A stretch of 52,591 nt of DNA from NCBI GenBank assembly GCA_002774635.1, contig PEXU01000047.1:1-52591 (forward strand), read 5' to 3'. The notes under the pieces are model-generated. The model saw nothing but the letters and a program-made list of their open reading frames with translations. It did no database searches and was not told the DNA's origin. This stretch comes from Candidatus Kerfeldbacteria bacterium CG08_land_8_20_14_0_20_40_16 (lineage in GTDB: Bacteria > Patescibacteriota > Patescibacteriia > UM-FILTER-42-10). This document shows positions 12,721-28,140 of the stretch, in pieces. The position numbers and the translations under genes are program-made. Within the stretch, counting starts at the first letter, position 1; the number at the start of each line of letters is the position of its first letter.

Positions 12721-14124
12721 ATGATTACTAAGACCGCCGAAATAGTTTCTGAACAATACAAATACGGCTTTGCCATGCCGGAAAAATACGTCTATAAATC
12801 TAAAAAAGGGCTTGATGAAAAGGTAATCCAAGAAATTTCTTGGAAGAAAAGCGAGCCGGCCTGGATGACCAAATTTCGTCTGCAAAGCTATCAGTACTTT
12901 AAGAAGAGAGCTTTACCAAAATGGGGAGGAGATCTGAAAAAAATCAACTTTGACAGCATTTATTACTACATTAAACCAACGGATCACCCGGCCAAAACCT
13001 GGGAGGAGCTGCCTTCAGAAATTAAGGAAACCTACGACAAAATTGGCGTTCCGGAAGCGGAAAAGAAATTTCTGGCGGGAGTAGGAGCGCAGTACGATTC
13101 AGAAATGGTTTACCATTCTCTAATCGAGAATCTGGAAAAACAGGGAATTATTTTTTTGGATACCGATTCCGCTTTGCAACAATACCCCGATTTAGTAAAG
13201 GAGTATTGGGGTACAATTGTTCCGTCCAATGATAACAAATTTGCTGCTCTCAACTCCGCAGTGTGGTCCGGAGGGTCGTTTATCTACGTGCCAAAAGGGG
13301 TAAGCGTGAAACTGCCTTTGCAGGCTTACTTCAGAATCAATGCGGCGCGGATGGGTCAGTTTGAACGCACTTTAATTATTGCGGAAGAGGGGAGCGACTT
13401 TCACTATTTAGAAGGATGTACTGCTCCGATTTATACCACCGATTCCCTGCACGCAGCCGTGGTAGAAGTGTTTATAAAAAAGGGAGCCCGAGTGCGCTAT
13501 ACCACCATCCAAAACTGGAGCAATAATGTCTATAATCTGGTAACCAAAAGAATGCGAATTGAAGCAGAAGGAATCGGAGAATGGATTGATTGCAATCTTG
13601 GTTCTAAGCTAACCATGAAATACCCCGCCTGCTATTTAATGGGCCCGGGCGCGCGCGGCGAGCTGCTTTCTATGGTTTATGCCGGATTAGGCCAGCACCA
13701 GGATGCCGGCGGCAAAATGATCCACATAGCGCCCCATACTTCTAGCAGAATAACTTCTAAGTCAATCAGCCAGAACGGGGGAAGAACATCTTATCGCGGG
13801 CTGATTCAAATAAATTCCAAGGCAGAAGAATCAAAATCCCGGGTGGTGTGTGATGCCTTAATTCTAGATGAAAAATCCCGGTCCGACACCTATCCTGATA
13901 TGAAAATCTATCAGCAAAATACCCAGGTGGAGCACGAAGCCACAGTCTCTAAAATAGGCGAGGAGCAGCTTTTTTACTTAATGAGCCGGGGTATTGACCA
14001 GATGACCGCCGAGACAATGATTATTAACGGATTCATTGAACCAATTGTAAAAGAACTACCGTTGGAATATGCGGTAGAAATGAACCGGCTGATCCAGCTA
14101 CAGATGGATAGAAGTATTGGTTAA
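12721..14124 (+). CDS. sufB: Fe-S cluster assembly scaffold SufB
   Basis: 467 aa with conserved SufB/SufD C-terminal beta-helix region. Confidence 0.9.
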
Positions 14125-14127
14125 TTT

Positions 14128-14232
14128 CATAATTTACAATTCTCAATTTTCAATGACTACTTTCTTAATTGTTTGAAAATTGAATCATTGAAAATTTATT
14201 GAAAATTGAAAATTGATAATTAAAAATTGCAT
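14128..14232. repeat. Copy of the dispersed AT-rich hairpin repeat (AATTTTCAAT / ATTGAAAATT family)
   Basis: Left arm caattctcaattttcaatg; right arm cattgaaaatttattgaaaattgaaaattgataatt. Confidence 0.7.
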
Positions 14233-14851
14233 TCTAATGACTAAAATAATAATTGATCAACTGAATAGAAAAAAGTCCAAGCGAACTTTGTCTGTTGGTA
14301 AAAGTGAGTCTTTAGTCTATTTATTACTGGGTTTACAGCCGGGCTCCAAAGAAGTCACGATAAATCTAAATGGCAAGGGGGCGACGGCCGAGATACTGGG
14401 ATTGTTTATCGGCCGGCAAGGAACAGGTCAGATCAAAACAATTCAGCGCCACTTGGCTCCTGACACTACCAGCGATTTGTTAATAAAAAGCGTTTTATTT
14501 GATGAGGCAAGCTATAATTACCACGGCATGATCCGGATCGACCGGTCCGCTCCGGGCGCCAATGCTTATCAAAGAAATGACAACTTATTACTAAGTGAAA
14601 AAGCGCTGGTTAACACTAGGCCGGAATTGGAGATTCTGGCCAACGATGTCCGTTGCACCCACGGGGCAACCACCGGCAGAATAAATGAGGCTAACCTGTT
14701 TTATCTTACCAGTAAAGGTATTGCCAAAAAGGAAGCGGAGCGTCTAATCGTGGAAGGGTTTTTGCAAGATGTTCTTGAGAGGATTCCTGACCAGAAAAAA
14801 AGAAATGAGCTAGCAAAACAATTAAAAAGGAAATTAAATCATGTTAATTAA
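14213..14851 (+). CDS. sufD: Short SufD-like Fe-S assembly protein
   Basis: SufBD-family C-terminal region; its position directly after sufB. Confidence 0.7.
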   Translation: MIIKNCILMTKIIIDQLNRKKSKRTLSVGKSESLVYLLLGLQPGSKEVTINLNGKGATAEILGLFIGRQGTGQIKTIQRHLAPDTTSDLLIKSVLFDEASYNYHGMIRIDRSAPGANAYQRNDNLLLSEKALVNTRPELEILANDVRCTHGATTGRINEANLFYLTSKGIAKKEAERLIVEGFLQDVLERIPDQKKRNELAKQLKRKLNHVN

Positions 14852-15143
14852 AATAGCCAAAACAAACGAAATATCAGCTGGAGCAATGAAACGGTTTACT
14901 GTAAGGGGCAAAAAAATCATCATTGTAAATCTGGAGGAAAAATTTTATGCCCTAGATGATACTTGTTCGCATAACCAATGCTCTTTGAGCAAAGGAGAAT
15001 TAGAAGGCGGGATAATTATTTGTCCTTGCCACGGAGCAAGGTTTGATGTTTCGACCGGCAAAGTGCTGGCGCTTCCGGCGGTGAAAGACCTCAAAATTTA
15101 TCCGGTTCAAATCAAAAAAGATTATTTATATGTAGAAATTTAA
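14841..15143 (+). CDS. Rieske [2Fe-2S] domain protein
   Basis: CSH...CPCH ligand boxes. Confidence 0.8.
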   Translation: MLIKIAKTNEISAGAMKRFTVRGKKIIIVNLEEKFYALDDTCSHNQCSLSKGELEGGIIICPCHGARFDVSTGKVLALPAVKDLKIYPVQIKKDYLYVEI

Positions 15144-15144
15144 T

Positions 15145-16368
15145 ATGATTGATGCCGCTAAAATCAAAAAAGATTTTCCGCTTCTAAATCAGAAAATGAA
15201 CGGCCAGCCGCTAGTCTATTTAGACAGTGCTGCTACTTCTCAAAAACCTCAAGCAGTAATTGATGCTATTAAGGATTTTTATGAGCGCCATAACGCCAAT
15301 ATTCATCGGGGGATCTACCGGTTAAGCGAGGAGGCCACCGAGCTTTATGAAGGTGCCCGGGAAAAAGTGCAAAAATTCATTAGAGCCAAAGAAACAAAAG
15401 AAATCATTTTTACCCGTGGTACTACTGAATCAATTAACTTAGTGGCTTATAGTTGGGGCAGACAAAATATAGAAAAGGGGGATGAAATTATTGTTACGGA
15501 AATGGAGCATCATTCTAATCTGATCCCCTGGCAGTTATTGGCTAAAGAAAAAGAAGCGGTTCTGAAATTTATTCCGATAGATGATGAAGGTCGTTTGAAG
15601 ATTACTAAGCTGGACAGTTTGTTGAATAAGAAAACAAGGTTATTAGCAATAACGCATGTTTCTAATGTTTTGGGAGTGGTTAATCCTTTGAAAGAAATCA
15701 TCACCAAGGCGCATAGTAATGGAACGCGGGTGCTGGTAGATGGTGCCCAGGCCGTTCCCCATCTGTCCGTGGATGTATCAGAGCTAGATTGTGATTTTTA
15801 CGCTTTTTCAGGCCATAAAATGCTGGGACCGACCGGCATCGGAGTGCTCCACGGAAAAAGGGAGTTATTAGAAGCGATGCCTCCCTTTATGGGCGGGGGT
15901 GAAATGATTAAGGAAGTTACCAAAGAAGGCGCTACTTGGAACGAATTGCCGACCAAGTTTGAAGCGGGCACTATGCCGATTGCCCAAGTGGTCAGTTTAG
16001 GAACGGCCATTGATTATTTGAATGGCATCGGAATGGAAAATATCTGGCAGCATGAACAAATGCTCATTGCCTATGCTTTAGAAAAGGTTACGGCCATACC
16101 TGGAGTTAAAATCTATGGTCCGTTGAAACCGAAAGACAAAGGCGGAGTGCTGTCCTTTAATATCGGCGAAATCCATCCGCATGACATTGCTTCTATTTTT
16201 GATGAAGAAGGAATTGCGATCCGGGCCGGTCACCACTGCGCCCAGGTATTGCACCGTCGTTTAGGGATTCCCGCTACCGTCCGGGCCAGTTTTTACCTTT
16301 ATACCGATCAGTCGGATATTGATAAACTGATAGGAGCAATTAAGAAAGCTAAACAACTTTTGCTATGA
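15145..16368 (+). CDS. sufS: Cysteine desulfurase SufS (PLP-dependent)
   Basis: PLP-lysine region SGHKMLGPTGIGVL; active-site cysteine RAGHHCAQ. Confidence 0.9.
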   Translation: MIDAAKIKKDFPLLNQKMNGQPLVYLDSAATSQKPQAVIDAIKDFYERHNANIHRGIYRLSEEATELYEGAREKVQKFIRAKETKEIIFTRGTTESINLVAYSWGRQNIEKGDEIIVTEMEHHSNLIPWQLLAKEKEAVLKFIPIDDEGRLKITKLDSLLNKKTRLLAITHVSNVLGVVNPLKEIITKAHSNGTRVLVDGAQAVPHLSVDVSELDCDFYAFSGHKMLGPTGIGVLHGKRELLEAMPPFMGGGEMIKEVTKEGATWNELPTKFEAGTMPIAQVVSLGTAIDYLNGIGMENIWQHEQMLIAYALEKVTAIPGVKIYGPLKPKDKGGVLSFNIGEIHPHDIASIFDEEGIAIRAGHHCAQVLHRRLGIPATVRASFYLYTDQSDIDKLIGAIKKAKQLLL

Positions 16369-16757
16369 ACACCTCGGATATTTATCGGGAAGAAATTATT
16401 GACCATTCCAAACATCCGCGCAATTTCGGTAAAATTGCTAAGCCGGATGTACGCTATAAAGAAAAAAACCCGCTTTGCGGTGATGAAATAGAACTTTTCG
16501 TAAAATTGGATAGTCATAAAAAAGTTAAAGCAGTCGCTTTTAACGGAGCCGGTTGCGTAATCAGCAGGGCCTCTGCTTCTTTATTCACCGAGGCGATAAA
16601 AGGAAAATCTGTGAGGGAATTAGAACAACTTTCTGCTAAGGATGCCTTGGAGTGCCTGGGTTTATCAGAGCTTACTCCGACCCGCCAAAAATGCGCTCTG
16701 CTGGTTCTAGAAACTCTCAAGCGCGGCTTGAAGAAATATCAACAAAAAACCAAATAG
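16365..16757 (+). CDS. sufU: SufU/IscU-like sulfur-transfer/scaffold protein
   Basis: NifU-N-like fold with conserved Cys (LCGDE, GAGC). Confidence 0.8.
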   Translation: MNTSDIYREEIIDHSKHPRNFGKIAKPDVRYKEKNPLCGDEIELFVKLDSHKKVKAVAFNGAGCVISRASASLFTEAIKGKSVRELEQLSAKDALECLGLSELTPTRQKCALLVLETLKRGLKKYQQKTK

Positions 16758-16787
16758 GAAGAATCTCTAACAATTAAACTAAATACT

Positions 16788-17369
16788 ATGAAATACGAAT
16801 TACCTAAACTTAATTATGCTTATGATGCCTTAGAGCCTTATCTTGACGCTCAAACAATGGAAATTCACCATTCCAAACATCATCAAGCCTATACTGATAA
16901 TTTCAACAAAGCTTTGGCGGAGCATCCTGACCTGGCGGAAATGCCGGTGGAGGAGCTTTTAGCTAAAGTGAATGAATTATCGATTAAAGATAGAGATAAA
17001 AACGCTCTGCGTAACCACGGCGGAGGTTATTATAATCATAAACTGTTCTGGGAAATTATGGATCCCGCTAACAAAAAGGACGAATCTTTAATCAAGGACA
17101 TTGAAACAGAGTTTGGCTCCGTTGATTCCTTTAAGGAACAGTTTTCCGAAACGGCTAAAACTCTACTAGGCAGCGGCTGGGCCTGGCTAGCACGGGATAA
17201 AGAAGGCAAGCTCCATGTTTACGGTCTGCCTAATCAGGATTCCCCCTTCCAAAAAGGGCATACCCCGATAATCTGCCTGGATGTTTGGGAGCATGCTTAT
17301 TATCTTAAATATCAAAACCGCCGACCGGAATACATTGAAAACTGGTGGAATGTCTTAAAATTAATTTAG
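16788..17369 (+). CDS. sodA: Fe/Mn superoxide dismutase
   Basis: Signature motifs LPxLxYxxxALEP, HHxKHH and DVWEHAYY. Confidence 0.9.
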   Translation: MKYELPKLNYAYDALEPYLDAQTMEIHHSKHHQAYTDNFNKALAEHPDLAEMPVEELLAKVNELSIKDRDKNALRNHGGGYYNHKLFWEIMDPANKKDESLIKDIETEFGSVDSFKEQFSETAKTLLGSGWAWLARDKEGKLHVYGLPNQDSPFQKGHTPIICLDVWEHAYYLKYQNRRPEYIENWWNVLKLI

Positions 17370-17406
17370 AAAGGGGATACTAATAAGTGAGGGTCTGTCT
17401 ATTACA

Positions 17407-17437
17407 GTAGGCGAGCTCGCGTCGCGGGATCGCCTAC
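17407..17437. repeat. Palindromic element GTAGGCGAgctcgcgtcgcgggaTCGCCTAC (GTAGGCGA family), acting as terminator after sodA
   Basis: Inverted repeat followed by tttt. Related copies at 18923-18958 and 22159-22186. Confidence 0.6.
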
Positions 17438-17531
17438 TTTTGTATTGACCAATCATTTCTTTATTGATAAAATAAAGGACTTTAAGAAGTTTTTTTGAAC
17501 ATTCACAAACCTTAATAGAGGAGGGCTTGAA

Positions 17532-18848
17532 ATGCCGCTCAAAATAATTGTTGGTTGTCAAAAAGGCGATGAAGGTAAAGGTAAGCTTGTTGATCGAGAA
17601 CTTACATTAGGTCATTTTACCTGGAACGTGCGTTTTCAAGGTGGGCGCAATGCCGGCCATACCGTGCAAGTCGGAGATCAACAGATTATCCTGCATCTGA
17701 TTCCTTCGGGAGTGCATCACAAGAATGTCCAATTGGGACTAGGCCCGGGTGTCATTTTTGACCCACAGGGGTTCTTTGAGGAAGTAGATGAACTCAAATC
17801 TTTTGGGATTGAAGTTGAAGGGCGTCTCTGGGTTTCCCCGGCTGCCAAGCTGGTAATGCCCTGGGATAAGGTTCTGGACGGAGCAATCGACCAAGTTCGG
17901 GCTGAAGCTCAAGGTAAAACGGTTCAGGCTGGCGGTGGAGTAGGAACCACTAATCGCGGGATCGGTCCGGCTTATGCCAATGCCATTGCCCGGGACGGTC
18001 TGACCGTTGCCCATCTGCTGAATCCGGAAATTCTCCGCCAACGGCTGGGAACAGTGGTGCCGGTCATCAATCGGATACTCAATGCTTTCGGCTGTCCGGA
18101 AACTAGCGTATAGGAAGTATTTGATCTGTACGCGCCGCTCGGAGAATGCTTACGGAAATTTACTAAGCCTCTTTCTCAAGGATTAGTACAATCACTTGAG
18201 AAAGATCAGTGGATTTTAGTGGAAGGTGGTCAGGGTGCTTTCCTAAGTGTTGACTGCGGGGTCAGTTATCCCTGTTGCACTTCTTCCATTACCACCTCTA
18301 ATGCCGTTTTTGCCGGGTTAGGATTGCCGCTGGTTCCCGAGTGGATCGGTCCGATCGTAGGCGTGGTCAAAGCTTACCAAACTGCCGTCGGTAATCATCC
18401 CATGCCCACTTTGATTGGTGGAGAAGTGGAAGAGAGAATCCGCCAGCGCGGAAAGGAATTCGGTGCTACCACCGGTCGTCCTAGGCACTGTTGCTGGATT
18501 AATGGCTTGGAATTGGTAAGGGGGGTCTGGATTAACGGATGCACGGAAATCGTCATTACTAAGCTGGATGTTCTGGACGAAGAACCAGCAATTCCGATTG
18601 CGCGGGCGCTACGCTACAATAACTATGAGATTCATGAACTGCCTTCGACTTTGGAGGAATACCTAAGATGTGAGCCGGTTTATGATCAAGCTATGTCTGG
18701 TTGGCAAAAAGATACCAGTGGGGTTAGTAAATTCTCTAACCTTCCCGAAGAAGCCTGGAACTATCTCAAGCAACTGGAAATCATTGCCGGCGTGCCGATC
18801 ACCGGCGTTTCTAACGGTCCTCAAAGGGATCAGTTCTGCGTCGCGTGA
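17532..18848 (+). pseudogene. purA: Adenylosuccinate synthetase purA interrupted by a single in-frame TAG at 18111-18113. Both halves and the intervening segment are in one frame and PurA-like throughout.
   Basis: N-terminal half has the GDEGKGK P-loop and GGRNAGHT; after the TAG the same frame reads EVFDLYAPLGE...LVEGGQGAFLSVDCGV...GTTGRPRHCCW...ITKLDVLD. TAG is used as the stop of three other genes in the window. Confidence 0.75.
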
Positions 18849-18864
18849 TGCAGAACACCTCCAG

Positions 18865-18895
18865 GGGAAGAATTATTCATGGTTCTTCCCCTATT
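18865..18895 (+). terminator. Rho-independent terminator after purA
   Basis: ggggaagaattattcatggttcttcccc + tatttt. Confidence 0.6.
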
Positions 18896-18922
18896 TTATT
18901 TGACGAGGATTAATAATTTATG

Positions 18923-18958
18923 ATCAGTAGGCGAATTTGGCCAAATTCGCCTACTGAT
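18923..18958. repeat. Perfect 36-bp palindrome ATCAGTAGGCGAATTTGGCCAAATTCGCCTACTGAT (GTAGGCGAATTT family)
   Basis: Seen directly in the sequence. Confidence 0.75.
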
Positions 18959-19009
18959 AGGAACGATGTCCCACGTACCAAAGTAGGGTATTTGTTCAGT
19001 GGAACGAGT

Positions 19010-19100
19010 ACCCTTTTTAAATTTCCAATTTCCAATTCTCAATTTTCAAATAAGTTCCAAATTCCAATGTTCCAAACATATTTATAATTTGGAATTTTAA
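19010..19100. repeat. Copy of the AT-rich AATTTCCAAT/AATTTTCAAT repeat family
   Basis: atttccaatttccaattctcaattttcaaat ... ttataatttggaatttt. Confidence 0.6.
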
Positions 19101-19159
19101 TAAAAAAAGGGTATAAGCACAAAGTGCTCTACCCTTGTAAATTCCTCCTTTCGAATGAA

Positions 19160-20065
19160 CTATCCCGTCCTTTGATAAACAGGTTCACGTTTCTTCTTAA
19201 AGGCAGTGAGCCCTTCCGCATAGTCCGGATGTGGTGCGAGTTCTTGCAGGTAAACCGTTTCGGAAAATTCCAGAGCTTCGGTAAGGGTTTTAGCATTCTG
19301 GGCACAGTGGGTTAGCACGCTGGTCGCCTGATTCAGGACAAAGGAGCTCAACTTAGCGGTATGCTGCTGTACATCGGCAAGCGCTTGGGCGACGGTAGTT
19401 TCGTCAATGTGCAGGACTTCTCCAAAGAGACTGGAAATTTTAGGTAGTTCCGCAACTGATCTGAAATCCAGTTGCTCAATGAGATTTTCCAGCGTGCCGG
19501 TAAAAGTCTCGTCAATCAGCCCCATAACGCGCATATCCTCCAGTTGCCAGGGTTCCTCTCCCTTCAGAATTTTACCTGTCAGCAGAAACCGGATTGTGCT
19601 TGTGATGTCCTTTGATAGGCGGGGGAAAACTGCCAAACCGAACGGCGGATAGCAAGCCAGCTTAATCTCCGGAACTCCGAAATACAGCGTTTTGGGATTC
19701 AAGGCGATTACCTTCCGGCAGGCCCGGACCAGTTCCGCTCCTCCGCCTAGACACTTGCCGGAAACAATAGCGACGGTAGGAAGGGGAAATTCAGCAACGG
19801 TCCGGCAGAGATTGTTGAAAACAGGAAGCATTTTTCCCACCTTCTCCGGAAAATGTTCGCCAATATCCGCTCCGGCGCAAAAATACTCTCCTTCACTGGC
19901 GAGCACCAATAGGTCGAATTCCTTGATCGGGAATTCCATCAGCAGAAAGTGGGATAGTTCTTCGCACATCGCCTGGTTCAAAATGTTTAGCGGCGGTCGC
20001 TTAAGCAGTAAGACCGCATTTCGACCATATGGTTTGAGTTCAGTAAATTGCAAATTCATCCTCAT
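19160..20065 (-). CDS. Enoyl-CoA hydratase/isomerase (crotonase) family protein
   Basis: Crotonase-fold motifs (FCAGADIGE, GGGAELVRACRKVIA); GC-richer than surrounding genes. Confidence 0.65.
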   Translation of the reverse strand: MRMNLQFTELKPYGRNAVLLLKRPPLNILNQAMCEELSHFLLMEFPIKEFDLLVLASEGEYFCAGADIGEHFPEKVGKMLPVFNNLCRTVAEFPLPTVAIVSGKCLGGGAELVRACRKVIALNPKTLYFGVPEIKLACYPPFGLAVFPRLSKDITSTIRFLLTGKILKGEEPWQLEDMRVMGLIDETFTGTLENLIEQLDFRSVAELPKISSLFGEVLHIDETTVAQALADVQQHTAKLSSFVLNQATSVLTHCAQNAKTLTEALEFSETVYLQELAPHPDYAEGLTAFKKKREPVYQRTG

Positions 20066-20118
20066 ACTCCTTAATAAGTTAATAGGACAAAAATTTCGGT
20101 TGTCAGAACGGGGAAGGG

Positions 20119-21255
20119 CTACGATTCTTGAGGTTTTCCCAGCACCGCCTCAAACAGCTCTTCATTCATGGGATGACCTTCTGCCAGCAACTGTCGGTAC
20201 TTAATGAAATCAATGACATTCGAGCCGGTGATTTTCTTGGTGTTGAAGGCAGTGAATCCCAGAGAACCTTCGCCCTGCATGTTTGCTGCTAGCCAGTGCC
20301 GGTTGGGAAGTTTATTCTGGTCCCACCCGGATTTTTTCTTCTGCCGGATACCGTCAATAGATTTCATCAGACAGCCCGAGAACAGGTTGATAAAGGTCCA
20401 GACGATGCGGTTGACTGCGGTATCGAGCTGAGCGGAATCATATACCACTTTTTCCATCAGACCTTTGGCATGCTGGATTTCGTTGTGTCCTGAGAGGCGT
20501 TCGCCGAAGACAATTCTGCCGTTCTCTATCCATTGGTCGGTGATGACCAAGGGGTTGGTGATGAATTTTCCTTCCAGCTTGAGTACTGGTACTGCCTCGG
20601 TGATTAATCCCAGCCGCAACATCTTGTAGGCAGACCACATTTCGCAGGAAACGCAGCTCCACATTGCTTGCTCAAGGGGTAACAACCAAGGCAGAAAGTC
20701 AGTAGAACCGCCGTCTGGTGCGCTGCCATGACGAGGACCGGCTTGTCCGAATATAGCAGTGTCAGCGGCAATGGTCAGATCGCATGCCATGCCAATTTCC
20801 TGACCGCCAGCTACGCGCATGCCGTTGACTCGGTTGATGACGGGCTTTTTGCAGTTTAGAATGGCATCCACCATCGCGATGAAAAGGTCCATGTACTGAC
20901 CGTATTCTTCCGGCCGGCCGGAGTAATACTCGGCGTATTCCTTGGTGTTGCCGCCGGTGCAGAAAGCCTTGCTGCCCATGGCAGTGAAAACCACTGCTAC
21001 CACACTGCGGTCCATTGAGGCGCGGTAGAACCCGGCGATTACTCCTTTCACCATTTTCGTGGTGTAGGAATTAAGTTGCTCCGGGTTGTTCAGAATAATC
21101 CAGGCGGTGCAAAGGTCTGGAACTACCAGTCCTTTGTCGTCCATTATCGGGCGTAGTTCGTACATTACACCCGGTGCTTGATCGCTGAATAGCGATTCGT
21201 CAAAGAGATTATGGTCTTTCAACTCATGATCTCGTGGTACCCAGTCTAGTGACAT
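20119..21255 (-). CDS. Long-form crotonase-superfamily enzyme (378 aa; MenB-like or ring-hydrolase BamA/Oah-like; subfamily not resolved)
   Basis: FCTGGN...GQAGPRHGSAPDGGSTDFLP crotonase core with N- and C-terminal extensions. Confidence 0.5.
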   Translation of the reverse strand: MSLDWVPRDHELKDHNLFDESLFSDQAPGVMYELRPIMDDKGLVVPDLCTAWIILNNPEQLNSYTTKMVKGVIAGFYRASMDRSVVAVVFTAMGSKAFCTGGNTKEYAEYYSGRPEEYGQYMDLFIAMVDAILNCKKPVINRVNGMRVAGGQEIGMACDLTIAADTAIFGQAGPRHGSAPDGGSTDFLPWLLPLEQAMWSCVSCEMWSAYKMLRLGLITEAVPVLKLEGKFITNPLVITDQWIENGRIVFGERLSGHNEIQHAKGLMEKVVYDSAQLDTAVNRIVWTFINLFSGCLMKSIDGIRQKKKSGWDQNKLPNRHWLAANMQGEGSLGFTAFNTKKITGSNVIDFIKYRQLLAEGHPMNEELFEAVLGKPQES

Positions 21256-21455
21256 GTTTTACTCCCTTCTGTTTTTACTAACTGATTGGTGATTTTTTGA
21301 TTGTATTTGGTTGTAAAAGTTCAAATTTGTATTTAATAATACAAGTTTTATATCTTAGCATAAGGAAAAGGGGAATTCAAATCTTGACTTTGTTTCTGGT
21401 TATATGATAGTGTGAAATTACAGATAAATGGCGTTCTCGGACGTCTATTTTTTGT

Positions 21456-21500
21456 TTAATTCTCAATTATCAATTCTCAATTTACAATCAATTTTCAATG
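21456..21500. repeat. Left arm of the AT-rich hairpin repeat; it contributes the ATG of the four-helix-bundle gene
   Basis: aattctcaattatcaattctcaatttacaatcaattttcaATG. Confidence 0.65.
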
Positions 21501-21863
21501 AAACAATTTCCAAACAGGTATGATTTAGAAGATAGAACAGCTAATTTTGGCGCTGATATCATATTATTTTGTAAAAGAATTGTACAGGACGAAATCGCCA
21601 AACCCATTGTAAAACAGCTAATTCGTTCGGCAACAAGCATTGGAGCAAATTATATGGAAGCAAATGCCGCAAGTTCAAGAAAAGATTTTAGAAATAAGAT
21701 ATACATTTGCAAGAAAGAAGCTCAAGAAACAAAACATTGGCTGAGAATGATGTTGGTCTGTTTACCGGATAAGAAAGAAAAGATAAATAAACTACGTGGA
21801 GAATGTCAGGAATTAACGTTAATTTTTCAAAAAATAACCTCGTCATTGAAAATTAAAAATTAA
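21498..21863 (+). CDS. Four-helix-bundle protein (23S-rRNA-intervening-sequence protein family)
   Basis: Characteristic LIRSATSIGANYMEANAASSRKDFRNKIYICKKEAQETKHWL motif; both gene ends lie inside the repeat arms. Confidence 0.7.
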   Translation: MKQFPNRYDLEDRTANFGADIILFCKRIVQDEIAKPIVKQLIRSATSIGANYMEANAASSRKDFRNKIYICKKEAQETKHWLRMMLVCLPDKKEKINKLRGECQELTLIFQKITSSLKIKN

Positions 21864-21925
21864 ACATTCACTGAAAATTGATAATTGGAAATTGAAAATT
21901 TGTTTTTATTGTAAATTTGACAATT
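21845..21925. repeat. Right arm of the AT-rich hairpin repeat; it contributes the stop codon of the four-helix-bundle gene
   Basis: cattgaaaattaaaaattaaacattcactgaaaattgataattggaaattgaaaatt. Confidence 0.65.
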
Positions 21926-22125
21926 TATCCAAAAATAGAATAGGATAGGAATTACAACTAAATAACTAATTTTAGCCATGAAACTGCAATTTAAGTACAA
22001 TCTGATGAATTCCAAAGATACCCAAGGAATCAGGGATGTTGCCGTATTATACGGTAATCTCGCTTGCCCGGGCAGTTTTAGGCTAATTTTAGGCAAAATG
22101 TAATGTAATTTAGTTATTATCCTAG

Positions 22126-22150
22126 TACTGCCCCGGCAAAAGCCGGGGTT
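22126..22150 (+). terminator. Rho-independent terminator
   Basis: ccccggcaaaagccggggttttt. Confidence 0.65.
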
Positions 22151-22158
22151 TTTAAGTA

Positions 22159-22186
22159 GTAGGCGAATTTCGCGAAATTCGCCTAC
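22159..22186. repeat. Palindrome GTAGGCGAATTTCGCGAAATTCGCCTAC (third copy of the GTAGGCGAATTT family)
   Basis: Seen directly in the sequence. Confidence 0.75.
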
Positions 22187-22216
22187 AAAACCGTTCCCAA
22201 ACTGGAGGAAACAACC

Positions 22217-23410
22217 ATGATCAAGAGAACAACCAAAATATTCTACCTTGTCACCGGAATCAGCGAATTTTTCGTGGCTTTTCATTTTGGCACCTACGTG
22301 CTGTTCTTGCTGTCGCACCAGCTGACGCTTTTTGAGGTCAGCCTGGTAAACATGGTTTTTATGACCACCATGTTCTTATTTGAAGTGCCAACCGGTGCTA
22401 TTGCCGATATCTTTGGCCGAAGATTCTCTTATCTTCTGTCTTGCCTGGTCACTGCCGCCGGATTCCTGTTTTACGGATTTTCGAGCACCTTGGCCGGATT
22501 TATGTTAGCGGAAGCGATTCTGGCCTTGGGAGCAACCCTTACTTCCGGAGCGTTAGATGCTTGGTTTGTGGACAGTCTGAAATTCTACGGCTACCAGGGG
22601 TCGTTTCACAATTTCTTTGCCCGCCAGGCAAGGATTCTGAATGGAGCAACCATCTTTGGCGCTTTGGCCGGCGGTTACTTAGGCCGTTTGAATCTCGCTT
22701 ACAATTGGTTTGTAGCTGGATTCGGATTTCTGCTGGTAGCTTGGCTGGCCTCGCGGTTGATGAAGGAGGAATACTTTCAACCGAATGGAAACGGCATAAA
22801 GGGCATTCTGTCTGATTTTCGGGAAGTAGCCGGCAGCTCTTTCCACTATGGTAAGAGCAGTAAGGCATTTGTCTTGCTGGTTCTAATTGGCGTGGGAGTG
22901 AGTATTGCCACTATGGCCCCTAATATGCAGTGGCAGCCGGTTTTCCGGAGGTACTTTAATGATCCGGCGCTCTTTGGCTGGCTTTGGGCGGCCATGTCCG
23001 TGGCGGTAATAATCGGAAACACCCTAGTTCCTTGGCTGGCTAAGAAATTACCAGGCCAAAAATGGGTCTTTGCTTTAGCACTGCTGGTGATTGGAGTAGG
23101 GGTGATTATCACCCCTTGGGCTTCCGGATTACTGATCACCCTGTTGTTCTTCCTGTTTCATGAAATGGGTCGGGGAGTGCTTAGGCCCAGCCTGGATGCT
23201 TATTTAAACAGGATTATTCCTTCTAATTGGCGGGCCACCCTCCTCTCAATTTATTCTATGACCACCACCGGCGGAGCGGCCCTGGGACTACTGATAAGCG
23301 GTTATTTAGCAGAGCGCTACTCGATTCCGCTAACCTGGTCTCTGGCCGGGGGTTTGTTGCTGCTACTTATCCCCATCTCCTTGAAGCTCAAGGAAGAAGG
23401 AAAAAATTAA
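22217..23410 (+). CDS. MFS-type transporter (12 predicted transmembrane helices)
   Basis: Hydrophobicity pattern and a GRRF-type loop motif (ADIFGRRFSY). Confidence 0.7.
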   Translation: MIKRTTKIFYLVTGISEFFVAFHFGTYVLFLLSHQLTLFEVSLVNMVFMTTMFLFEVPTGAIADIFGRRFSYLLSCLVTAAGFLFYGFSSTLAGFMLAEAILALGATLTSGALDAWFVDSLKFYGYQGSFHNFFARQARILNGATIFGALAGGYLGRLNLAYNWFVAGFGFLLVAWLASRLMKEEYFQPNGNGIKGILSDFREVAGSSFHYGKSSKAFVLLVLIGVGVSIATMAPNMQWQPVFRRYFNDPALFGWLWAAMSVAVIIGNTLVPWLAKKLPGQKWVFALALLVIGVGVIITPWASGLLITLLFFLFHEMGRGVLRPSLDAYLNRIIPSNWRATLLSIYSMTTTGGAALGLLISGYLAERYSIPLTWSLAGGLLLLLIPISLKLKEEGKN

Positions 23411-23411
23411 A

Positions 23412-23448
23412 AGGTCCTTCCTAACACCAAGAAGGACCTTTTTTATCA
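23412..23448 (+). terminator. Rho-independent terminator
   Basis: aaaaggtccttcctaacaccaagaaggaccttttttat. Confidence 0.7.
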
Positions 23449-23645
23449 CTTGTTTTAGCTAAAATATTCAAAAAATTGATTTACCCTACTTTATCGCTTG
23501 ACAGTGTTTTATCAGAAGAAGTATGATAAAAACAACAAAATAGACTGGCAAACAAACACCAAAATCAATTTAAAAACCTTTAACAATCTCAGGGTTTGTT
23601 TTTTTCTCGCTTTTTTTCACTGAAAATGAGCAAAAGTGGGGAGTA

Positions 23646-23674
23646 TTGACTGACACAAGATTTTGTGATAGAAT
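23646..23674 (+). promoter_or_regulatory. Sigma70-like promoter of the nrdR-nrdJ operon (TTGACT ... extended -10 TGATAGAAT)
   Basis: ttgactgacacaagattttgtgatagaat. Confidence 0.5.
23654..23669. promoter_or_regulatory. NrdR box 1 (ACACAAGATTTTGTGA), overlapping the -10 region
   Basis: 13/16 match to the NrdR-box consensus acaCwAtATaTwGtgt. Confidence 0.55.
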
Positions 23675-23685
23675 ACCTTATAGGA

Positions 23686-23701
23686 CCACTAGATATAGTA
23701 T
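23686..23701. promoter_or_regulatory. NrdR box 2 (CCACTAGATATAGTAT), 32 bp downstream of box 1
   Basis: Near-palindrome matching the NrdR-box core ACTAtATATAGT; the tandem spacing of ~3 helical turns is typical. Confidence 0.55.
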
Positions 23702-23781
23702 TTTTAAGAATACAAAAAGCTAATTTGTGGGGAAATAACAAATCCCACCCTTAAAAGGGTCTATTTTTTTGCGAAAAAACT

Positions 23782-24258
23782 ATGCGTTGTCCAGTTTGCC
23801 AACATCCCGATAGCCGAGTGGTAGATAGCCGGCTGGTAGAAGACGGAATAGTTATCCGTAGGCGCCGGGAATGTGAAAAGTGTGAATTTCGATTTTCTAC
23901 CTATGAAGAGGTAGAAATCCTAGATCTTTCTGTAATTAAAAGAGACGGACGCCGACAGCCCTATTCTCGAGAGAAACTAGAAGAAGGATTAAGGAAGTCG
24001 TTGGAAAAACGCCCAATCGGGTCAGATGATTTCAAAAGATTAATTAGCCGGATCGAAAGGGATATTCAACTTAAGAGTAAATCAGCTTCTGCTCAAGCTA
24101 ATGGTTCCCGCCGAGAAGTTCCTACTTCCAAAATAGGCGACATTGTGATTAAGCATCTTCGCAAAGTTGATCCGGTGGCTTACATTCGCTTTGCCTCGGT
24201 CTATAAATCATTTGATGACATTGATTCCTTTAAAAAAGAGCTTAAGAAAATAAGTTAG
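23782..24258 (+). CDS. nrdR: Transcriptional repressor NrdR
   Basis: N-terminal zinc ribbon CPVC...CEKC plus ATP-cone. Confidence 0.9.
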   Translation: MRCPVCQHPDSRVVDSRLVEDGIVIRRRRECEKCEFRFSTYEEVEILDLSVIKRDGRRQPYSREKLEEGLRKSLEKRPIGSDDFKRLISRIERDIQLKSKSASAQANGSRREVPTSKIGDIVIKHLRKVDPVAYIRFASVYKSFDDIDSFKKELKKIS

Positions 24259-24285
24259 CTTTTCAAGCATTAATTAGGAGGTTTT

Positions 24286-27189
24286 ATGCCCCAACAAACA
24301 CAAACACTTACCTCTTCCAAAATCGAAGAAGAAATCGAAATAAAAGATTCAGCCCCGGAAACAGATAAAAAAAGAGGTCTTTCTTTCCAGCGACTTTTTA
24401 CCTACGCCGAAACTCATCCTTTCGATGAAATCAAATGGGAAAAAAGAGATGCCGTAATCACCGACCCGAAAGGCAAAATAGTCTTTGAGCAAAAAGAAGT
24501 GGAAGTTCCTGATTTCTGGTCTCAGAACGCTACTAACATTGTGGCCTCGAAATATTTTTATGGCGATAAAGAAAAAAAAGAAAGAGAGTTCAGCGTCAAA
24601 CAACTGATTGACCGAGTCTCTCGAACCATAACCGACTGGGGCAAAAAAGATAATTATTTTGCATCCGAAGAAGATGCGGAAAATTTCTATAACGAATTAA
24701 CTTACCTTTTAGTAAATCAATACACGGCATTTAATAGCCCAGTCTGGTTTAACTGCGGGGTTGATCGTTATGATAGTGGTTCAGGAAAAGGACGCTATTA
24801 CTGGAACAAAGAACAGCAAAAAATATTAGTTGCCGAAGACGATTATACTCATCCCCAATGTTCGGCCTGTTTTATCAATTCGGTGGAAGATTCCATGGAT
24901 TCTATTTTAAATTTGGCCAAAACCGAGGGAATGTTGTTCAAATTCGGATCAGGAGCCGGTACCAACCTTTCTCCTATTCGGTCTTCTAAAGAGCATTTAA
25001 GCGGCGGCGGTCAATCCTCTGGCCCGGTGTCGTTTATGAAAGGATTTGATGCTTTTGCCGGGGTGATTAAATCGGGCGGCAAGACTCGCCGAGCGGCCAA
25101 AATGGTCATTTTAGATGTAAATCACCCGGATATAATGGAATTTATTGGATGTAAAGCCAATGAAGAAAAGAAAGCCTGGGCTCTAATTGATGCTGGTTAC
25201 GATGGTTCGATTGATGGAGAAGCTTATTCTTCGATTTTTTTCCAAAATGCCAACAATAGCGTTCGGGTAACGGATGAATTTATGGAAGCAACCCTGAATG
25301 ATGGTAAGTGGAAAACAAGGACAATTACCACTGGCAAAGTAATGGATACTTTTAATGCCCGTGACCTTTTGCGCAAAATCGCGGAAGCAACCCATATTTG
25401 TGGCGATCCCGGACTGCAGTTTGATACCGCGGTTAATGATTGGCATACCTGTTTGAATACCGATCGCATTTATGCCTCTAATCCTTGTAGCGAGTATATG
25501 TTCATCAATGATTCGGCCTGCAATCTGGTATCTTTAAATCTGACCAAGTTTTTGAATGATAATGGGGAGTTTGACGTTGCTTCTTTTAAGCATGCTGTGG
25601 ATGTAGTAATTACCGCTCAAGAGATAATCGTGGACCGCGCCAGTTATCCGACCCAGAAGATTGCTGAAAATAGCCATCTGTTCCGTGCCCTCGGGCTGGG
25701 ATACGCCAACTTGGGAGCGCTTCTGATGTATTTGGGCCTTCCTTATAATAGTGATAGGGGTAGAGCCTTGGCCGGTGTAATCACCGCCATTATGACCGCC
25801 GAAGCTTACAAACAATCTTCTATCATGGCCAAAGAAAAGGGGGTTTTTGATAAATATAATGAAAACAGAGAGCCCTTTTTAAGGGTGATTCGAAAACACC
25901 GGGATGCCACTAAAGAAATCAACGGCGATTTGACCATGCCTGGTCTAAAACAGGAGGCGGAAGAAATCTGGAACGAAGTTTTAGAACTAGGAAACGAGTA
26001 CGGCTTTCGAAATGCTCAAGTAACCTTGCTGGCTCCTACCGGTACCATCGGCTTTTTAATGGATTGTGATACTACCGGTATTGAGCCGGACATTGCTCTG
26101 GTAAAATACAAAAAATTGGTGGGAGGAGGCTACATGAAGATTGTGAATAATACTATCCCCATGGCGCTTAAACGGCTTGGCTACAACAATGATCAGGTCA
26201 AGGACATTATCGACTACATTGACAAAAACGATACGATCGAGGGAACGCCTTATCTTAAAGAAGAAGATCTGCCGGTATTTGATTGCGCTTTTCGTCCTTC
26301 CAACGGCGTCCGCTCCATTCACCATTTGGGGCATATTAAAATGATGTCGGCCGTTCAACCCTTTCTTTCTGGAGCCATTTCTAAAACGGTGAACATGCCC
26401 GAGAATTCAACGGTAGAAGATATTATGGATACCTATATCCAGGCTTGGAAGTTGGGCTTAAAAGCAATTGCCATTTATCGGGATAGTTCTAAACGAACTC
26501 AACCTTTAAACAATAAGAAAGAGGAAAAGGATGTCAAGAAAGAGGAGTTTAAAGTAATTCGTAACAAACTGCCGGACGAAAGACAGTCCATTACCCATAA
26601 GTTCGAAGTAGCCGGCCACGAAGGATACATTACGGTTGGTCTTTACGAAGATGGTCGCCCTGGCGAAATCTTTATTACCATGTCGAAAGACGGCAGCACC
26701 CTTTCTGGAATAATGGACGCCTTTGCCACTTCTATTTCCCTTAACCTGCAATATGGCGTTCCCCTGAAAGTGCTGGTTAATAAATTTACCCACACCCGCT
26801 TTGAACCGGCCGGCTTTACCAATAACAAGCAGATCCCGATGGCTAAGTCGATTATGGATTATATCTTTCGCTGGTTGGCAATAAAGTTTTTAAACCCCGA
26901 AGAAGTAGCGTTGGTTCATAACGCTTTATTGATTGGGGAAGACAAGAAGGAACTGAAGGAAGAGGTAAAAGAAAATAGCAAAATAAAGGAGGAAGAAAAA
27001 GATTCTCCTAATCCGGGCGAAGGTCAAGACCCGCTGCCCGCTTTTCAAATAAAGGTTGAGCAACAAGAATTGTTAACCTTTCAGAACCACGAAGATGCTC
27101 CGTTCTGCGAAGAATGCGGATCAATTATGATTCGCAACGGATCCTGCTACAAATGCCTGGAATGCGGCAGTACCAGCGGCTGCTCCTAG
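24286..27189 (+). CDS. nrdJ: Class II (adenosylcobalamin-dependent) ribonucleotide reductase NrdJ with a C-terminal zinc ribbon
   Basis: 967 aa monomeric-type RNR; active-site NPCSEY; C-terminal CEECG...CYKCLECG. Confidence 0.8.
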   Translation: MPQQTQTLTSSKIEEEIEIKDSAPETDKKRGLSFQRLFTYAETHPFDEIKWEKRDAVITDPKGKIVFEQKEVEVPDFWSQNATNIVASKYFYGDKEKKEREFSVKQLIDRVSRTITDWGKKDNYFASEEDAENFYNELTYLLVNQYTAFNSPVWFNCGVDRYDSGSGKGRYYWNKEQQKILVAEDDYTHPQCSACFINSVEDSMDSILNLAKTEGMLFKFGSGAGTNLSPIRSSKEHLSGGGQSSGPVSFMKGFDAFAGVIKSGGKTRRAAKMVILDVNHPDIMEFIGCKANEEKKAWALIDAGYDGSIDGEAYSSIFFQNANNSVRVTDEFMEATLNDGKWKTRTITTGKVMDTFNARDLLRKIAEATHICGDPGLQFDTAVNDWHTCLNTDRIYASNPCSEYMFINDSACNLVSLNLTKFLNDNGEFDVASFKHAVDVVITAQEIIVDRASYPTQKIAENSHLFRALGLGYANLGALLMYLGLPYNSDRGRALAGVITAIMTAEAYKQSSIMAKEKGVFDKYNENREPFLRVIRKHRDATKEINGDLTMPGLKQEAEEIWNEVLELGNEYGFRNAQVTLLAPTGTIGFLMDCDTTGIEPDIALVKYKKLVGGGYMKIVNNTIPMALKRLGYNNDQVKDIIDYIDKNDTIEGTPYLKEEDLPVFDCAFRPSNGVRSIHHLGHIKMMSAVQPFLSGAISKTVNMPENSTVEDIMDTYIQAWKLGLKAIAIYRDSSKRTQPLNNKKEEKDVKKEEFKVIRNKLPDERQSITHKFEVAGHEGYITVGLYEDGRPGEIFITMSKDGSTLSGIMDAFATSISLNLQYGVPLKVLVNKFTHTRFEPAGFTNNKQIPMAKSIMDYIFRWLAIKFLNPEEVALVHNALLIGEDKKELKEEVKENSKIKEEEKDSPNPGEGQDPLPAFQIKVEQQELLTFQNHEDAPFCEECGSIMIRNGSCYKCLECGSTSGCS

Positions 27190-27295
27190 TCTCAATTTTC
27201 AATTTTCAATTTACAATTTTCAAGTACGCCATTGAAAATTGAATCATTGAGAATTTAATGGAAATTGCAAAATTGATAATTGAAAATTATTGATT
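27190..27295. repeat. Copy of the AT-rich hairpin repeat (caattttcaattttcaatttacaattttcaag / cattgaaaattgaatcattgagaattt...aaattgataattgaaaatt)
   Basis: Inverted arms read directly from the sequence; shares the GAAAATTGATAATTG core with the other copies. Confidence 0.7.
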
Positions 27296-27846
27296 ATATT
27301 ATGTCCAGAAAAACAGAAAATAAAGGATTAGTAATCGTCTACACTGGCTCTGGCAAAGGCAAAACCACCGCGGCGATTGGAATGGCAGTGCGCGCGGCCG
27401 GTTATAATCAAAAATCAATCATTATTCAATTTATCAAAGGAACTTGGAAATCAGGGGAAGGGCAGAGTCTGAAAAAGCTTTATCCTCAAATAGAGATTAT
27501 TCCGGCCGGCAAGGGATTCGTAAAGATATTAAATGACCGCGAGCCTTTCAAAAATCATCTTCAAGCGGCTCAAGCGGCCTTAAAACTGGCTCGGCAGGCT
27601 GTCCGTTCCCATAAATATCAAATAGTGGTTCTGGATGAAATCAACTATGCGGTAAAAGGGAATTTGGTTTTAGTAAAAGATGTCTTAGATCTAATTAAAA
27701 TGAAGCTTCCCTCAATCCATTTAGTGCTGACCGGCAATTACGCTTCACCCCGCCTAATTCAAAAAGCCGATCTGGTGACAGAAATGAAAGAAATTAAACA
27801 TCCTTTCCAAAAAGGAATTAAGGCTCAAGAAGGAATCGATTATTAA
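27280..27846 (+). CDS. cobO: Cob(I)alamin adenosyltransferase (CobO/BtuR/CobA family); alternative start at 27301 (MSRK...)
   Basis: P-loop GSGKGKTTAA and family-typical length; sits adjacent to the B12-dependent RNR. Confidence 0.75.
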   Translation: MKIIDYIMSRKTENKGLVIVYTGSGKGKTTAAIGMAVRAAGYNQKSIIIQFIKGTWKSGEGQSLKKLYPQIEIIPAGKGFVKILNDREPFKNHLQAAQAALKLARQAVRSHKYQIVVLDEINYAVKGNLVLVKDVLDLIKMKLPSIHLVLTGNYASPRLIQKADLVTEMKEIKHPFQKGIKAQEGIDY

Positions 27847-27857
27847 GCGATTTGACA

Positions 27858-27887
27858 GCTCTAGTCAAGAAGTAATAGAATTAACTC
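27858..27887 (+). promoter_or_regulatory. Promoter TTGACA-18-TAGAAT driving the cobalamin riboswitch
   Basis: ttgacagctctagtcaagaagtaatagaat. Confidence 0.5.
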
Positions 27888-27899
27888 ACCTTAACAATT

Positions 27900-28140
27900 G
27901 AAAGTTTAATCAGAGAGAAAACAGGGAACACCGGTGGCTCCCTCGTCAGACGAGGGGGGAATCCGGGGCAGACCCGCTACTGTGAGTTCTGAACGAAGTG
28001 AAGAAATCACCTCGAGCTTAGTCGAGAGGTGATTATTCCCCAGCTCAGAATAAGCCAGAGAACTGAATCTCTCTTGAGAAAGTCTTCTTTACTTTCTTCG
28101 CGGATAGAGAAAGGAAGGGTCTAATTTTTGCCTTCCTTGA
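27900..28140 (+). ncRNA. Cobalamin (B12) riboswitch with terminator-type expression platform
   Basis: AGGGAACACCGGTG core, B12-box-like CCGCTACTG, AAGCCAGAGAACTG (cf. AGCCAGGAGACCTGCC), and a terminal hairpin ggaagg...ccttcc + ttttttt. Confidence 0.7.

Follow-up and report, generated by a model that had tools for sequence, protein, structure and literature searches.

The closest described relatives of the element considered here are the intervening sequences (IVSs) that are inserted into the 23S or 16S rRNA of bacteria such as Leptospira, Coxiella and Brucella and that encode a small protein, S23p. The Coxiella IVS (428/444 nt) contains an S23p open reading frame (ORF), a 28-bp terminal stem and three to four tandem GACAGAT heptamers before the ATG; cleavage by RNase III takes place at the first of these heptamers, whose number varies between strains (PMC4990558). 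IVSs of this kind are regarded as selfish and horizontally acquired (PMC4990558). ORFs of the same protein family, PF05635, have also been reported in rRNA insertions of bacteria of the candidate phyla radiation (CPR; PMC11270868) and inside cas operons (PMC3936711). Here, we describe a dispersed hairpin repeat and a PF05635 gene, coding for a four-helix-bundle (4HB) protein, on the complete 52.6-kb contig (52,591 nucleotides; hereafter, the window) of a Candidatus Kerfeldbacteria metagenome-assembled genome. The repeats are probably the terminal arms and the gene-less miniatures of a small selfish element of the IVS type, which is best filed as a previously undescribed IVS variant that resides in mRNA spacers, has arms built of heptamer arrays and leaves gene-less offspring. 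An original prediction, made from the letters of the window, had seen the repeats; their heptamer period, the link to rRNA IVSs and the wide distribution of the element go beyond it.

The window element resembles S23p IVSs in its PF05635 ORF of approx. 120 aa, its similar total size, its complementary, stem-forming ends, the heptamers placed directly before the ATG and the lack of a Shine-Dalgarno sequence. However, S23p IVSs sit in an rRNA helix, whereas the window element is found in the spacers of protein-coding operons; all window copies lie between protein genes, and Rfam detected no rRNA in the window or in 13 related loci. Both of its arms are wholly heptamer arrays, and it is accompanied by gene-less miniatures. 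Moreover, the ORF is intact here and strongly conserved (67-78% identity in more than 120 clusters) but is decaying in the Coxiella IVS.

Within the window there are one full element, two gene-less hairpins of approx. 105 nt and one decayed copy (Table 1; the gene map was built from ORFs, Pfam and the genes called on identical public contigs). A heptamer forms the repeat unit: on the plus strand, runs of AATTNNC (mostly AATTTTC, AATTTAC and AATTCTC) are followed by inverse runs of GNNAATT, and Tandem Repeats Finder returned period 7 at every site in place of the decamer-like unit that had been proposed. With at most two mismatches, CAATTNNCAATTNNCAAT occurs 20 times in the window against 1.5 expected (0 of 100 shuffles reach 20), and AATTTTCAAT with at most one mismatch occurs 43 times against 21 expected. 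All CAATTNNCAATTNNCAAT matches are confined to four sites (14.1, 19.0, 21.5-21.9 and 27.2 kb), and a looser scan of the entire window yielded no further heptamer copy outside them. Thus, the repeats were correctly located and exceed chance, and their inverted arms can be recognised, as can their capacity to form long imperfect hairpins (folding z against shuffles of -2.6 for 14125-14238, -3.1 for 19010-19125 and -4.4 for 27186-27300). From the list of five copies, those at 14128, 21456/21845 and 27190 and the decayed one at 19010 stand, and the one at 10225-10330 is doubtful: its arm order is reversed, its unit is another one and its fold is weak (z = -1.8; 11 of 200 shuffles are equally good). 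This region may hold remnants of two elements and is not counted as a member.

The two arms of the full element provide the gene with its start and stop codons, exactly as had been suggested. The ATG (21498) is the end of the left-arm sequence ...TTTTCAATG, the TAA (21861-21863) falls within the right arm, and the heptamer array extends through codons 3-5 of the 4HB gene. In the decayed copy, the left array (AATTTCC AATTTCC AATTCTC AATTTTC) is followed by ...CCAATGTTCCAAACA, which, read by eye, would be an N-terminal remnant of the 4HB gene. The same copy is bracketed, within 18985-19125, by ACCCTTTTT...AAAAAGGGT, which are paired in the fold. A position immediately upstream of start codons, which had been claimed for the family, holds for the 14128 and 27190 copies and not for this one, which is situated between two convergent stop codons (18848 and 19160).

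Table 1. Heptamer-repeat features of the window and their coordinates.
Feature	Coordinates	Strand	Description
Full element	21458-21900	+	Arms of approx. 40 nt, each of 4-5 heptamers, around the 121-aa PF05635/TIGR02436 gene; inverted arms 21455-21499/21852-21896, 73% match, 352 nt apart with the PF05635 ORF between them
Left arm of full element	21458-21497	+	AATTCTC AATTATC AATTCTC AATTTAC AATC AATTTTC A(ATG); start codon directly after
4HB gene	21498-21863	+	121 aa; PF05635 23S_rRNA_IVP / TIGR02436
Right arm of full element	21845-21900	+	ATTGAAAATTAAAAAT(TAA)ACATTCACTGAAAATTGATAATTGGAAATTGAAAATT; stop codon inside
Gene-less hairpin, copy 1	14123-14232	.	Occupies the whole spacer from sufB (stop 14122-14124) to a short sufD-like gene (ATG 14237); left array 14131-14155 (AATTTAC AATTCTC AATTTTC AATG), right array 14172-14228; inverted arms 14130-14154/14198-14222, 88% match
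Gene-less hairpin, copy 2	27190-27295	.	Fills the spacer between the class II ribonucleotide reductase gene (stop 27187-27189) and cobO (ATG 27301); left array 27194-27224, right array 27231-27288; inverted arms 27194-27226/27256-27288, 79% match
Decayed copy	19020-19106	.	Between the convergent purA and enoyl-CoA hydratase genes; right arm mostly lost
Doubtful region	10225-10330	.	A-rich GAAAATTAAAAATTG and, approx. 60 nt on, a T-rich TAATTTT x4 array; arm order reversed

The 4HB protein sequence is present on at least 23 public contigs. Ten independent metagenome contigs, obtained from several samples and with several assemblers, are 99.5-100% identical to the window and show no indels and no single-nucleotide polymorphism in any repeat; hence, the repeats are neither an assembly artefact nor prone to slippage at the population time scale. 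A comparison of strains had been proposed as a check on the prediction. The ten contigs keep every copy unchanged, and syntenic relatives (discussed below) have no hairpin between sufB and sufD.

That the gene encodes a four-helix bundle of the 23S-rRNA-IVS type is borne out by its match to Pfam PF05635 (E = 2e-16) and to TIGR02436 (E = 2.6e-22). The sole sequence match in the Protein Data Bank is 2RLD (E = 4.5e-15 with the single sequence and 5e-37 with a profile), i.e., BT_0352 of Bacteroides thetaiotaomicron. A single-sequence AlphaFold AF2 model (pLDDT 77.6) predicts four helices (residues 11-28, 35-56, 61-88 and 94-116), with 2RLD and 2GSC (Xcc0516 of Xanthomonas campestris) ranking best in the fold search. 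Each of the two entries contains five chains, and Xcc0516 has been described as a homopentamer (PMC4990558). The family motif RxxxSxxxNxxE, noted previously (PMC3936711), is found at R43-E54 of the window protein. Weaker fold matches (E about 0.5-1) were obtained for Avd, the accessory protein of diversity-generating retroelements (DGRs), both alone (4DWL) and in the DGR ribonucleoprotein (8UB7). Avd, a pentamer of four-helix bundles that binds nucleic acid within this ribonucleoprotein (PMC10053308), belongs to the same fold class, although its fold matches to the window protein are weak; in contrast to DGRs, there is no reverse transcriptase in the window region, and neither a reverse transcriptase family nor a template/variable repeat was found among 94 neighbours of related genes. 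PF05635/TIGR02436 is the only domain of the 4HB protein; neither a domain of the HUH, DDE or recombinase kind nor a transposase was detected in it by Pfam, TIGR02436 and the fold search.

When one genome per GTDB species was searched, the 121-aa protein serving as the query, at least 473 relatives were obtained, the best 80 of which were inspected. These are 62-75% identical to the query over the full length and originate from Yanofsky-, Ames-, Curtiss-, Nealson-, Jorgensen-, Giovannoni-, Levy-, Berkel-, Kaiser- and Saccharibacteria, CPR2 and other lineages. Both arms were detected in 65 of the 80 under a strict rule, and similar arms are visible almost everywhere in the printed flanks. The left arm has the consensus AATTTTC AATTTTC AATTTTC AATTTTC AATC AATTTTC AATG, and in 39 of these 65 cassettes its start is exactly 40 nt upstream of the ATG; the right-arm consensus, given as the reverse complement, is AATTTTCAATTTTCAATTTTCAATTTTCATTGAATTTTCAATT. 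The element measures 414-517 bp, and the array length is constant at 4+1 units across lineages. Codons 3-5 of the relatives carry the array on (CAA TTT TCA), and the TGA of ...AATTGAAAATT often serves as the stop codon. Loci anchored on the 4HB gene contain 0.165 extra arrays per kb, compared with 0.016 in control loci anchored on the ribonucleotide reductase (RNR) gene. The RNR-anchored scan, whose best match was 63% identical and thus too distant for synteny, served as the negative control: its 490 kb of metagenome loci, many with similar G+C content, contained 8 short arrays, no hairpin pairs and no 4HB genes.

Unrelated housekeeping families make up the neighbours of the relatives (51 on the upstream and 43 on the downstream side), for example, the gamma and beta subunits of ATP synthase (atpG/atpD), ribosomal protein S2, trigger factor, ClpP, RecO, serine hydroxymethyltransferase and release factor RF-1. 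Among these 94 genes, there is no reverse transcriptase, transposase, RNase or other recurring partner. The two closest homologues (77% and 75%) are located in yet other gene contexts. The suggestion of a tiny mobile cassette is therefore strongly supported, as the arm-gene-arm unit recurs in 80 unrelated contexts across Patescibacteria. The 4HB protein is 67-78% identical in more than 120 clusters, whereas the SufD-like protein shows 67% identity to its best relative and 45-55% to those of other Patescibacteria; this slow divergence of the 4HB protein relative to SufD fits horizontal spread, very strong constraint, or both. Phages were considered as the vector and rejected: a protein scan of viral contigs (IMG/VR) gave no 4HB relative, and 120 viral contigs with a four-unit left-type array (1.06 Mb) contained neither hairpin pairs nor 4HB genes. 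Two cassettes with typical arms (L020 and L048) lie on contigs binned as DPANN archaea (Undinarchaeales and Pacearchaeota), which could reflect either inter-domain transfer or mis-binning of co-filtered small cells.

The gene-less copies also form families. In 1.03 Mb of 4HB-related loci plus the window, 22 candidate left-right pairs without a gene were found (two in the window and 20 elsewhere), 17 of which are at least 80 nt long and most 95-119 nt. They retain the left arm, CAATG and 2-10 codons (e.g., ...CAATGACACAATTTT) and pick up again near the stop codon (...AAACATTAAAAATTCAATGAAAATT...). When the ORF of the full element was removed before the comparison, copies from one genome proved closer to each other than to the local full element: 96/99 vs. 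84/105 matching positions in L063, 85/95 vs. 80/95 in L012, and, in the window, 83/92 aligned columns between copies 1 and 2 vs. 72/93 between a copy and the full element. This indicates that they multiplied as gene-less units. The heptamer type of a gene-less copy is that of the neighbouring full element in 18 of 19 typed copies. It is reasonable to assume that these copies are internal-deletion derivatives of the full element that are copied as such. In this respect, there is strong support for a likeness of the family to MITEs (miniature inverted-repeat transposable elements), which had been named as a possible category: non-coding derivatives of approx. 100 bp with terminal inverted repeats have multiplied within a genome beside a longer coding relative, and a hairpin is absent from syntenic relatives. 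The analogy does not extend to target-site duplication, which is missing, or to the parent element, in which no transposase is recognisable.

How such an element might persist can be outlined from the position and orientation of its copies. Full elements mostly share their strand with the flanking genes (58 of 62 upstream genes, p = 3e-13, and 49 of 60 downstream ones), and in approx. 41 of 58 the upstream stop codon is placed at -2 to +13 nt relative to the first heptamer, its TAA often overlapping AATT. The element would have no promoter of its own and would be transcribed by read-through from the host operon. In the transcript, the arms would pair to form an imperfect stem of 30-43 bp from which the insert is looped out; in whole-element folds, they pair over at least 30 bp (for the window element in both the minimum free energy and the centroid structure), with z = -4.6 for the element of L066. 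By analogy with S23p rRNA IVSs, for which cleavage was shown experimentally, the stem may be a substrate of RNase III. The flanking genes would suffer little harm because the insert is looped out and the stem cut, and, since the 4HB start codon is placed in the stem's inner end, translation of this gene is probably coupled to ribosomes that finish the upstream gene. The homopentameric protein, in turn, probably recognises the heptamer array, one protomer per unit.

The possibility of such recognition derives from a link between the protein and the last base of the heptamer. In 13 elements, AATTTTG/CAAAATT takes the place of AATTTTC/GAAAATT, in each of the two arms as well as in codon 3 (Q to E). 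All of these G-type elements have Gly at residue 111, with four different codons in use. Of the 67 C-type elements, 63 have Gln there (CAA in 41, CAG in 21), including the window (Q111), and two elements with mixed A/T units have His. This covariation of residue 111 with heptamer base 7 is suggestive of a link between protein and heptamer. In one Saccharibacteria 4HB gene (L046, 10001-10363), there are two in-frame stops, one of them exactly at the residue-111 codon (Q to stop); the gene is either a pseudogene or affected by a sequencing issue.

Several results weigh against the view that the repeats are parts of an RNA-level selfish element. The whole fold of the window element is no better than that of shuffles (z = +0.24). 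In 38 elements with a 40-nt left arm, Watson-Crick pairs occupy 1181 of 1634 arm positions, yet the arms of one element are complementary at 31.08 of 43 positions compared with 31.20 of 43 for arms of different elements, and G-U pairs (68) do not exceed A-C pairs (80). Covariation between an element's own arms was thus discarded as proof of an RNA stem, as neither covariation nor strand asymmetry was found. The association of Q/G at residue 111 with C/G in the heptamer possibly reflects few evolutionary events (monophyly of the G type was not recovered, the tree being star-like with all pairs approx. 70% identical), and the first base of the codon is itself C or G, so that a nucleotide-level constraint may stand behind it. 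The number of heptamers, variable between Coxiella strains, is invariant in the ten population contigs, which also speaks against short-term slippage dynamics. The full element of the window, lying downstream of a divergent gene, is in a minority context. For gene-less copies, the orientation judged from their internal asymmetry (the arms cannot reveal it, since an inverted repeat reads alike on both strands) is mixed and the signal weak: eight plus, five minus and four undetermined. Finally, the 4HB protein contains no known catalytic or recombinase motif that would account for the movement of the element.

Some of these results would be expected if the arms were protein-binding terminal repeats of a domesticated, DNA-level system and RNA pairing were incidental. 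The model for such a system is provided by repetitive extragenic palindromic (REP) sequences, their inverted doublets (REPINs) and the RAYT gene of Pseudomonas and E. coli, in which dispersed palindromic doublets coexist with a usually single gene flanked by inverted copies. By analogy, the 4HB pentamer or a recruited host enzyme would copy the hairpins and the gene via DNA hairpins or arm recombination. The 4HB gene, too, is located between inverted copies of a dispersed repeat and is usually single within +/-10 kb, the gene-less doublets are scattered over intergenic spacers and make up families within genomes, and gene and repeat covary, as residue 111 does with heptamer base 7. Furthermore, the own arms show no extra complementarity: what there is stems from the AATT cores, which are self-complementary, and from the C/G position, whereas unit positions 5-6 vary freely, and this pattern of conserved and variable positions would suit a recognition site that is repeated no less than a helix under selection. 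The ends of the element are sharp (AATTTTC...GAAAATT) with no conserved flank beyond, and no target-site duplication was detected (of 64 elements, 37 have no shared flank, 25 share 1-2 nt and two share more, as by chance); together with the apparently mixed orientation of gene-less copies, this absence agrees with DNA-level copying. However, the RAYT gene encodes an HUH (Y1, IS200/IS605-like) transposase, while domains of the HUH, DDE or recombinase kind are lacking from the 4HB protein; the REP repeat is a unique palindrome, while here it is a tandem heptamer array, and a spacing of 7 nt is unfit for phased binding to B-DNA. The strong co-orientation of full elements with their hosts points to a need for host transcription, and the related rRNA IVSs act on RNA (PMC4990558). 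On balance, we consider a DNA-level system unlikely, though it is the strongest competitor of the selfish IVS-type element.

It is considerably less probable that the hairpins are host modules of operon spacers (mRNA-stabilising, processing, attenuator or promoter/untranslated-region (UTR) signals) and that the 4HB protein is a host regulator sharing these signals. Such a role could be suspected from the precise position of both gene-less hairpins in the window, which start 0-4 nt past the stop codon of sufB or RNR and finish 5 nt short of the next ATG, from their invariance in the ten population contigs, and from a weak -35/-10-like match at 27273-27300. In addition, TAACTGA heptamers located upstream of start codons in Beggiatoaceae, Cyanobacteria and Bacteroidetes have been proposed as translational regulators in Beggiatoaceae (PMC4679880). 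Nevertheless, the promoter/UTR role offered in the original prediction finds no support. The -35/-10-like match is the sole one in the arms and ends at the cobO ATG, too close to serve cobO. The Rfam scan of the window found no family over the hairpins, the only matches being tRNAs and a cobalamin riboswitch. No hairpin was predicted as an intrinsic terminator, as none has a G+C-rich stem or a T-run, whereas ordinary G+C-rich terminators are predicted elsewhere in the region. The unrelated contexts of the element follow no regulon logic, and the gene-less copies hold sequence resembling remnants of the 4HB gene.

Most instructive in this context is the sufB/sufD spacer, which amounts to 112 nt in the window, hairpin included. 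In its closest relative (L283/L284; SufD 67%), the spacer is 29 nt long and contains a solo array (AATTTCT AATGTCT AATTACT AATTTCT AATG; L283 1-32, L284 49-80), the first unit of which gives the sufB stop and the last unit the sufD start. Two further relatives manage with 11 nt (L285; SufD 62%) and, in a fully syntenic locus, 2 nt (L286; SufD 58%). Insertion into operon spacers of a few nucleotides meets both the stop and the start codon, and this is why the hairpins touch the next start; the position at start codons is thus better explained by insertion into 2-11-nt spacers than by a promoter/UTR role. As for ordinary slippage-generated heptamer simple sequence repeats (SSRs) in AT-rich spacers, without the identity of an element, the over-representation of heptamers among long SSRs of prokaryotes (most over-represented class; Mrazek 2007, as cited in PMC4679880) and the differing heptamer number of Coxiella strains (PMC4990558) would permit them, but the array fixed at 4+1 units (left arm of 40 nt in 39/65), the inverted pairing and sharp ends of the arms, the recurrence of matching arms beside the 4HB gene in distant lineages, the lack of indels in the population (which also sets the family apart from phase-variable SSRs) and the AT-matched controls without hairpins make this explanation scarcely credible.

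The association of PF05635 genes with heptamers is not limited to Patescibacteria. A tblastn search of plasmids provided PF05635 genes, with products sharing 31-43% identity with the window protein, in Nostoc, Dolichospermum, Aulosira, Planktothrix, Pseudanabaena, Gloeocapsa, Bernardetia, Chondrinema, Treponema, Monoglobus and Chlorohelix. All 14 inspected genes, from five other phyla, are flanked by heptamer-periodic, mutually inverted arrays with heptamers that differ from those of the window; among their flanks, period 7 ranks top in 12 of the 14 upstream ones and 13 of the 14 downstream ones, compared with 11 of 280 control segments. The units are AATTCAA x4-5 in Nostoc flagelliforme and Aulosira, CAATTCG x4.7 in N. 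punctiforme (with a perfect inverted repeat of 33 nt), TAATTCG x4.7 in Dolichospermum and Nostoc C052, AAATCGT in Planktothrix, AATCTAA in Gloeocapsa, of the ATGAAGG type in Chlorohelix, of the CTCTCCG type in Treponema, and CAGTNNA, the complement of the TAACTGA type, in Chondrinema. Protein identity tracks the heptamer (77%, 85% and 89% within heptamer groups vs. 52-56% between the AATTCAA group and others). Twelve of the 14 genes are co-oriented with their annotated neighbours, and they reside in operons such as RND efflux, hsdS/hsdR, DrmD/MmeI or helicase/methylase, or before cas1.

Several observations on individual plasmid loci can be added. In L152, L153 and L156-L159, the 4HB gene often lies in defence operons (DISARM DrmD/MmeI, hsdS/hsdR, helicase/methylase, upstream of cas1, DUF1156/HEPN). 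The proteins of Pseudanabaena (L157) and Candidatus Chlorohelix (L159; Chloroflexota) are 69% identical and have related GATGAAG-type arms, a likeness which suggests cross-phylum transfer of the whole element. Both arms of the element on a plasmid of Nostoc sp. UHCC 0870 (L161, approx. 520-600 and 985-1030) hold an insert of approx. 25 nt, GTTAGCGGAGCGGGACGTTAGTC, in inverted orientation, which resembles the small dispersed repeats of Nostoc.

These data invite a broader proposal, which we put forward tentatively and judge somewhat less probable than its negation: PF05635 pentamers would be sequence-specific readers of tandem heptamers, comparable to the trp RNA-binding attenuation protein (TRAP); together with their arms, they would constitute a widespread, horizontally moving gene-plus-repeat system, for which rRNA IVSs are one special landing site, and its gene-less offspring would include the cyanobacterial STRRs, the TAACTGA repeats, the GGGAATC pairs and the heptamer excess among SSRs. 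These repeats share with the window family the heptamer unit, the intergenic location and, often, a position just upstream of start codons, although their heptamers differ from AATTNNC. In Xanthomonas, GGGAATC arrays consist mostly of four units and form 70-75 convergent inverted pairs (PMC4692102), and both Xanthomonas (2GSC) and cyanobacteria carry PF05635 genes. Neither the TAACTGA paper (PMC4679880) nor the GGGAATC paper (PMC4692102) mentions PF05635 or S23p. Our literature search found no paper linking heptamer repeats to PF05635 and none with the motif; a 2026 preprint on coevolutionary mining of non-coding elements may describe the system.

If correct, the proposal would tie together three puzzles. 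The first is why heptamer repeats are so common in bacteria, which the element family may explain: the STRR, TAACTGA and GGGAATC families have been described since 1990 without explanation. The second and third are the function of PF05635 proteins, which are very common and represented by two crystal structures yet functionally unsolved, and the role of the ORF of rRNA IVSs, likewise unsolved. Recognition of heptamers by the protein is a directly testable hypothesis. In Patescibacteria, an element distributed throughout the superphylum enters spacers of a few nucleotides in essential operons, apparently without harm. This also bears on annotation, as hairpins and 4HB genes in atp, suf, restriction-modification, CRISPR-cas and efflux operons should be regarded as passengers and not as members of these operons.

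The surroundings of the window copies show a few further features. The purA gene (17532-18848), which encodes adenylosuccinate synthetase, is split by an in-frame TAG (18111-18113); on one contig (L006), this site reads CAG and the gene is an intact one of 438 aa, i.e., there is a nonsense polymorphism in an essential-looking gene. Downstream of purA, there are ordinary terminator-like hairpins at 18863-18892 and 18985-19014 and, at 18923-18958, a perfect palindrome of 18+18 nt (ATCAGTAGGCGAATTTGG/CCAAATTCGCCTACTGAT) that is unrelated to the heptamers. The cobalamin riboswitch (RF00174, 38 bits; 27886-28084, plus strand) is situated after cobO and before DUF4430/DUF6580 genes, and with NrdR and the B12-dependent class II RNR upstream, it forms a B12-centred neighbourhood.

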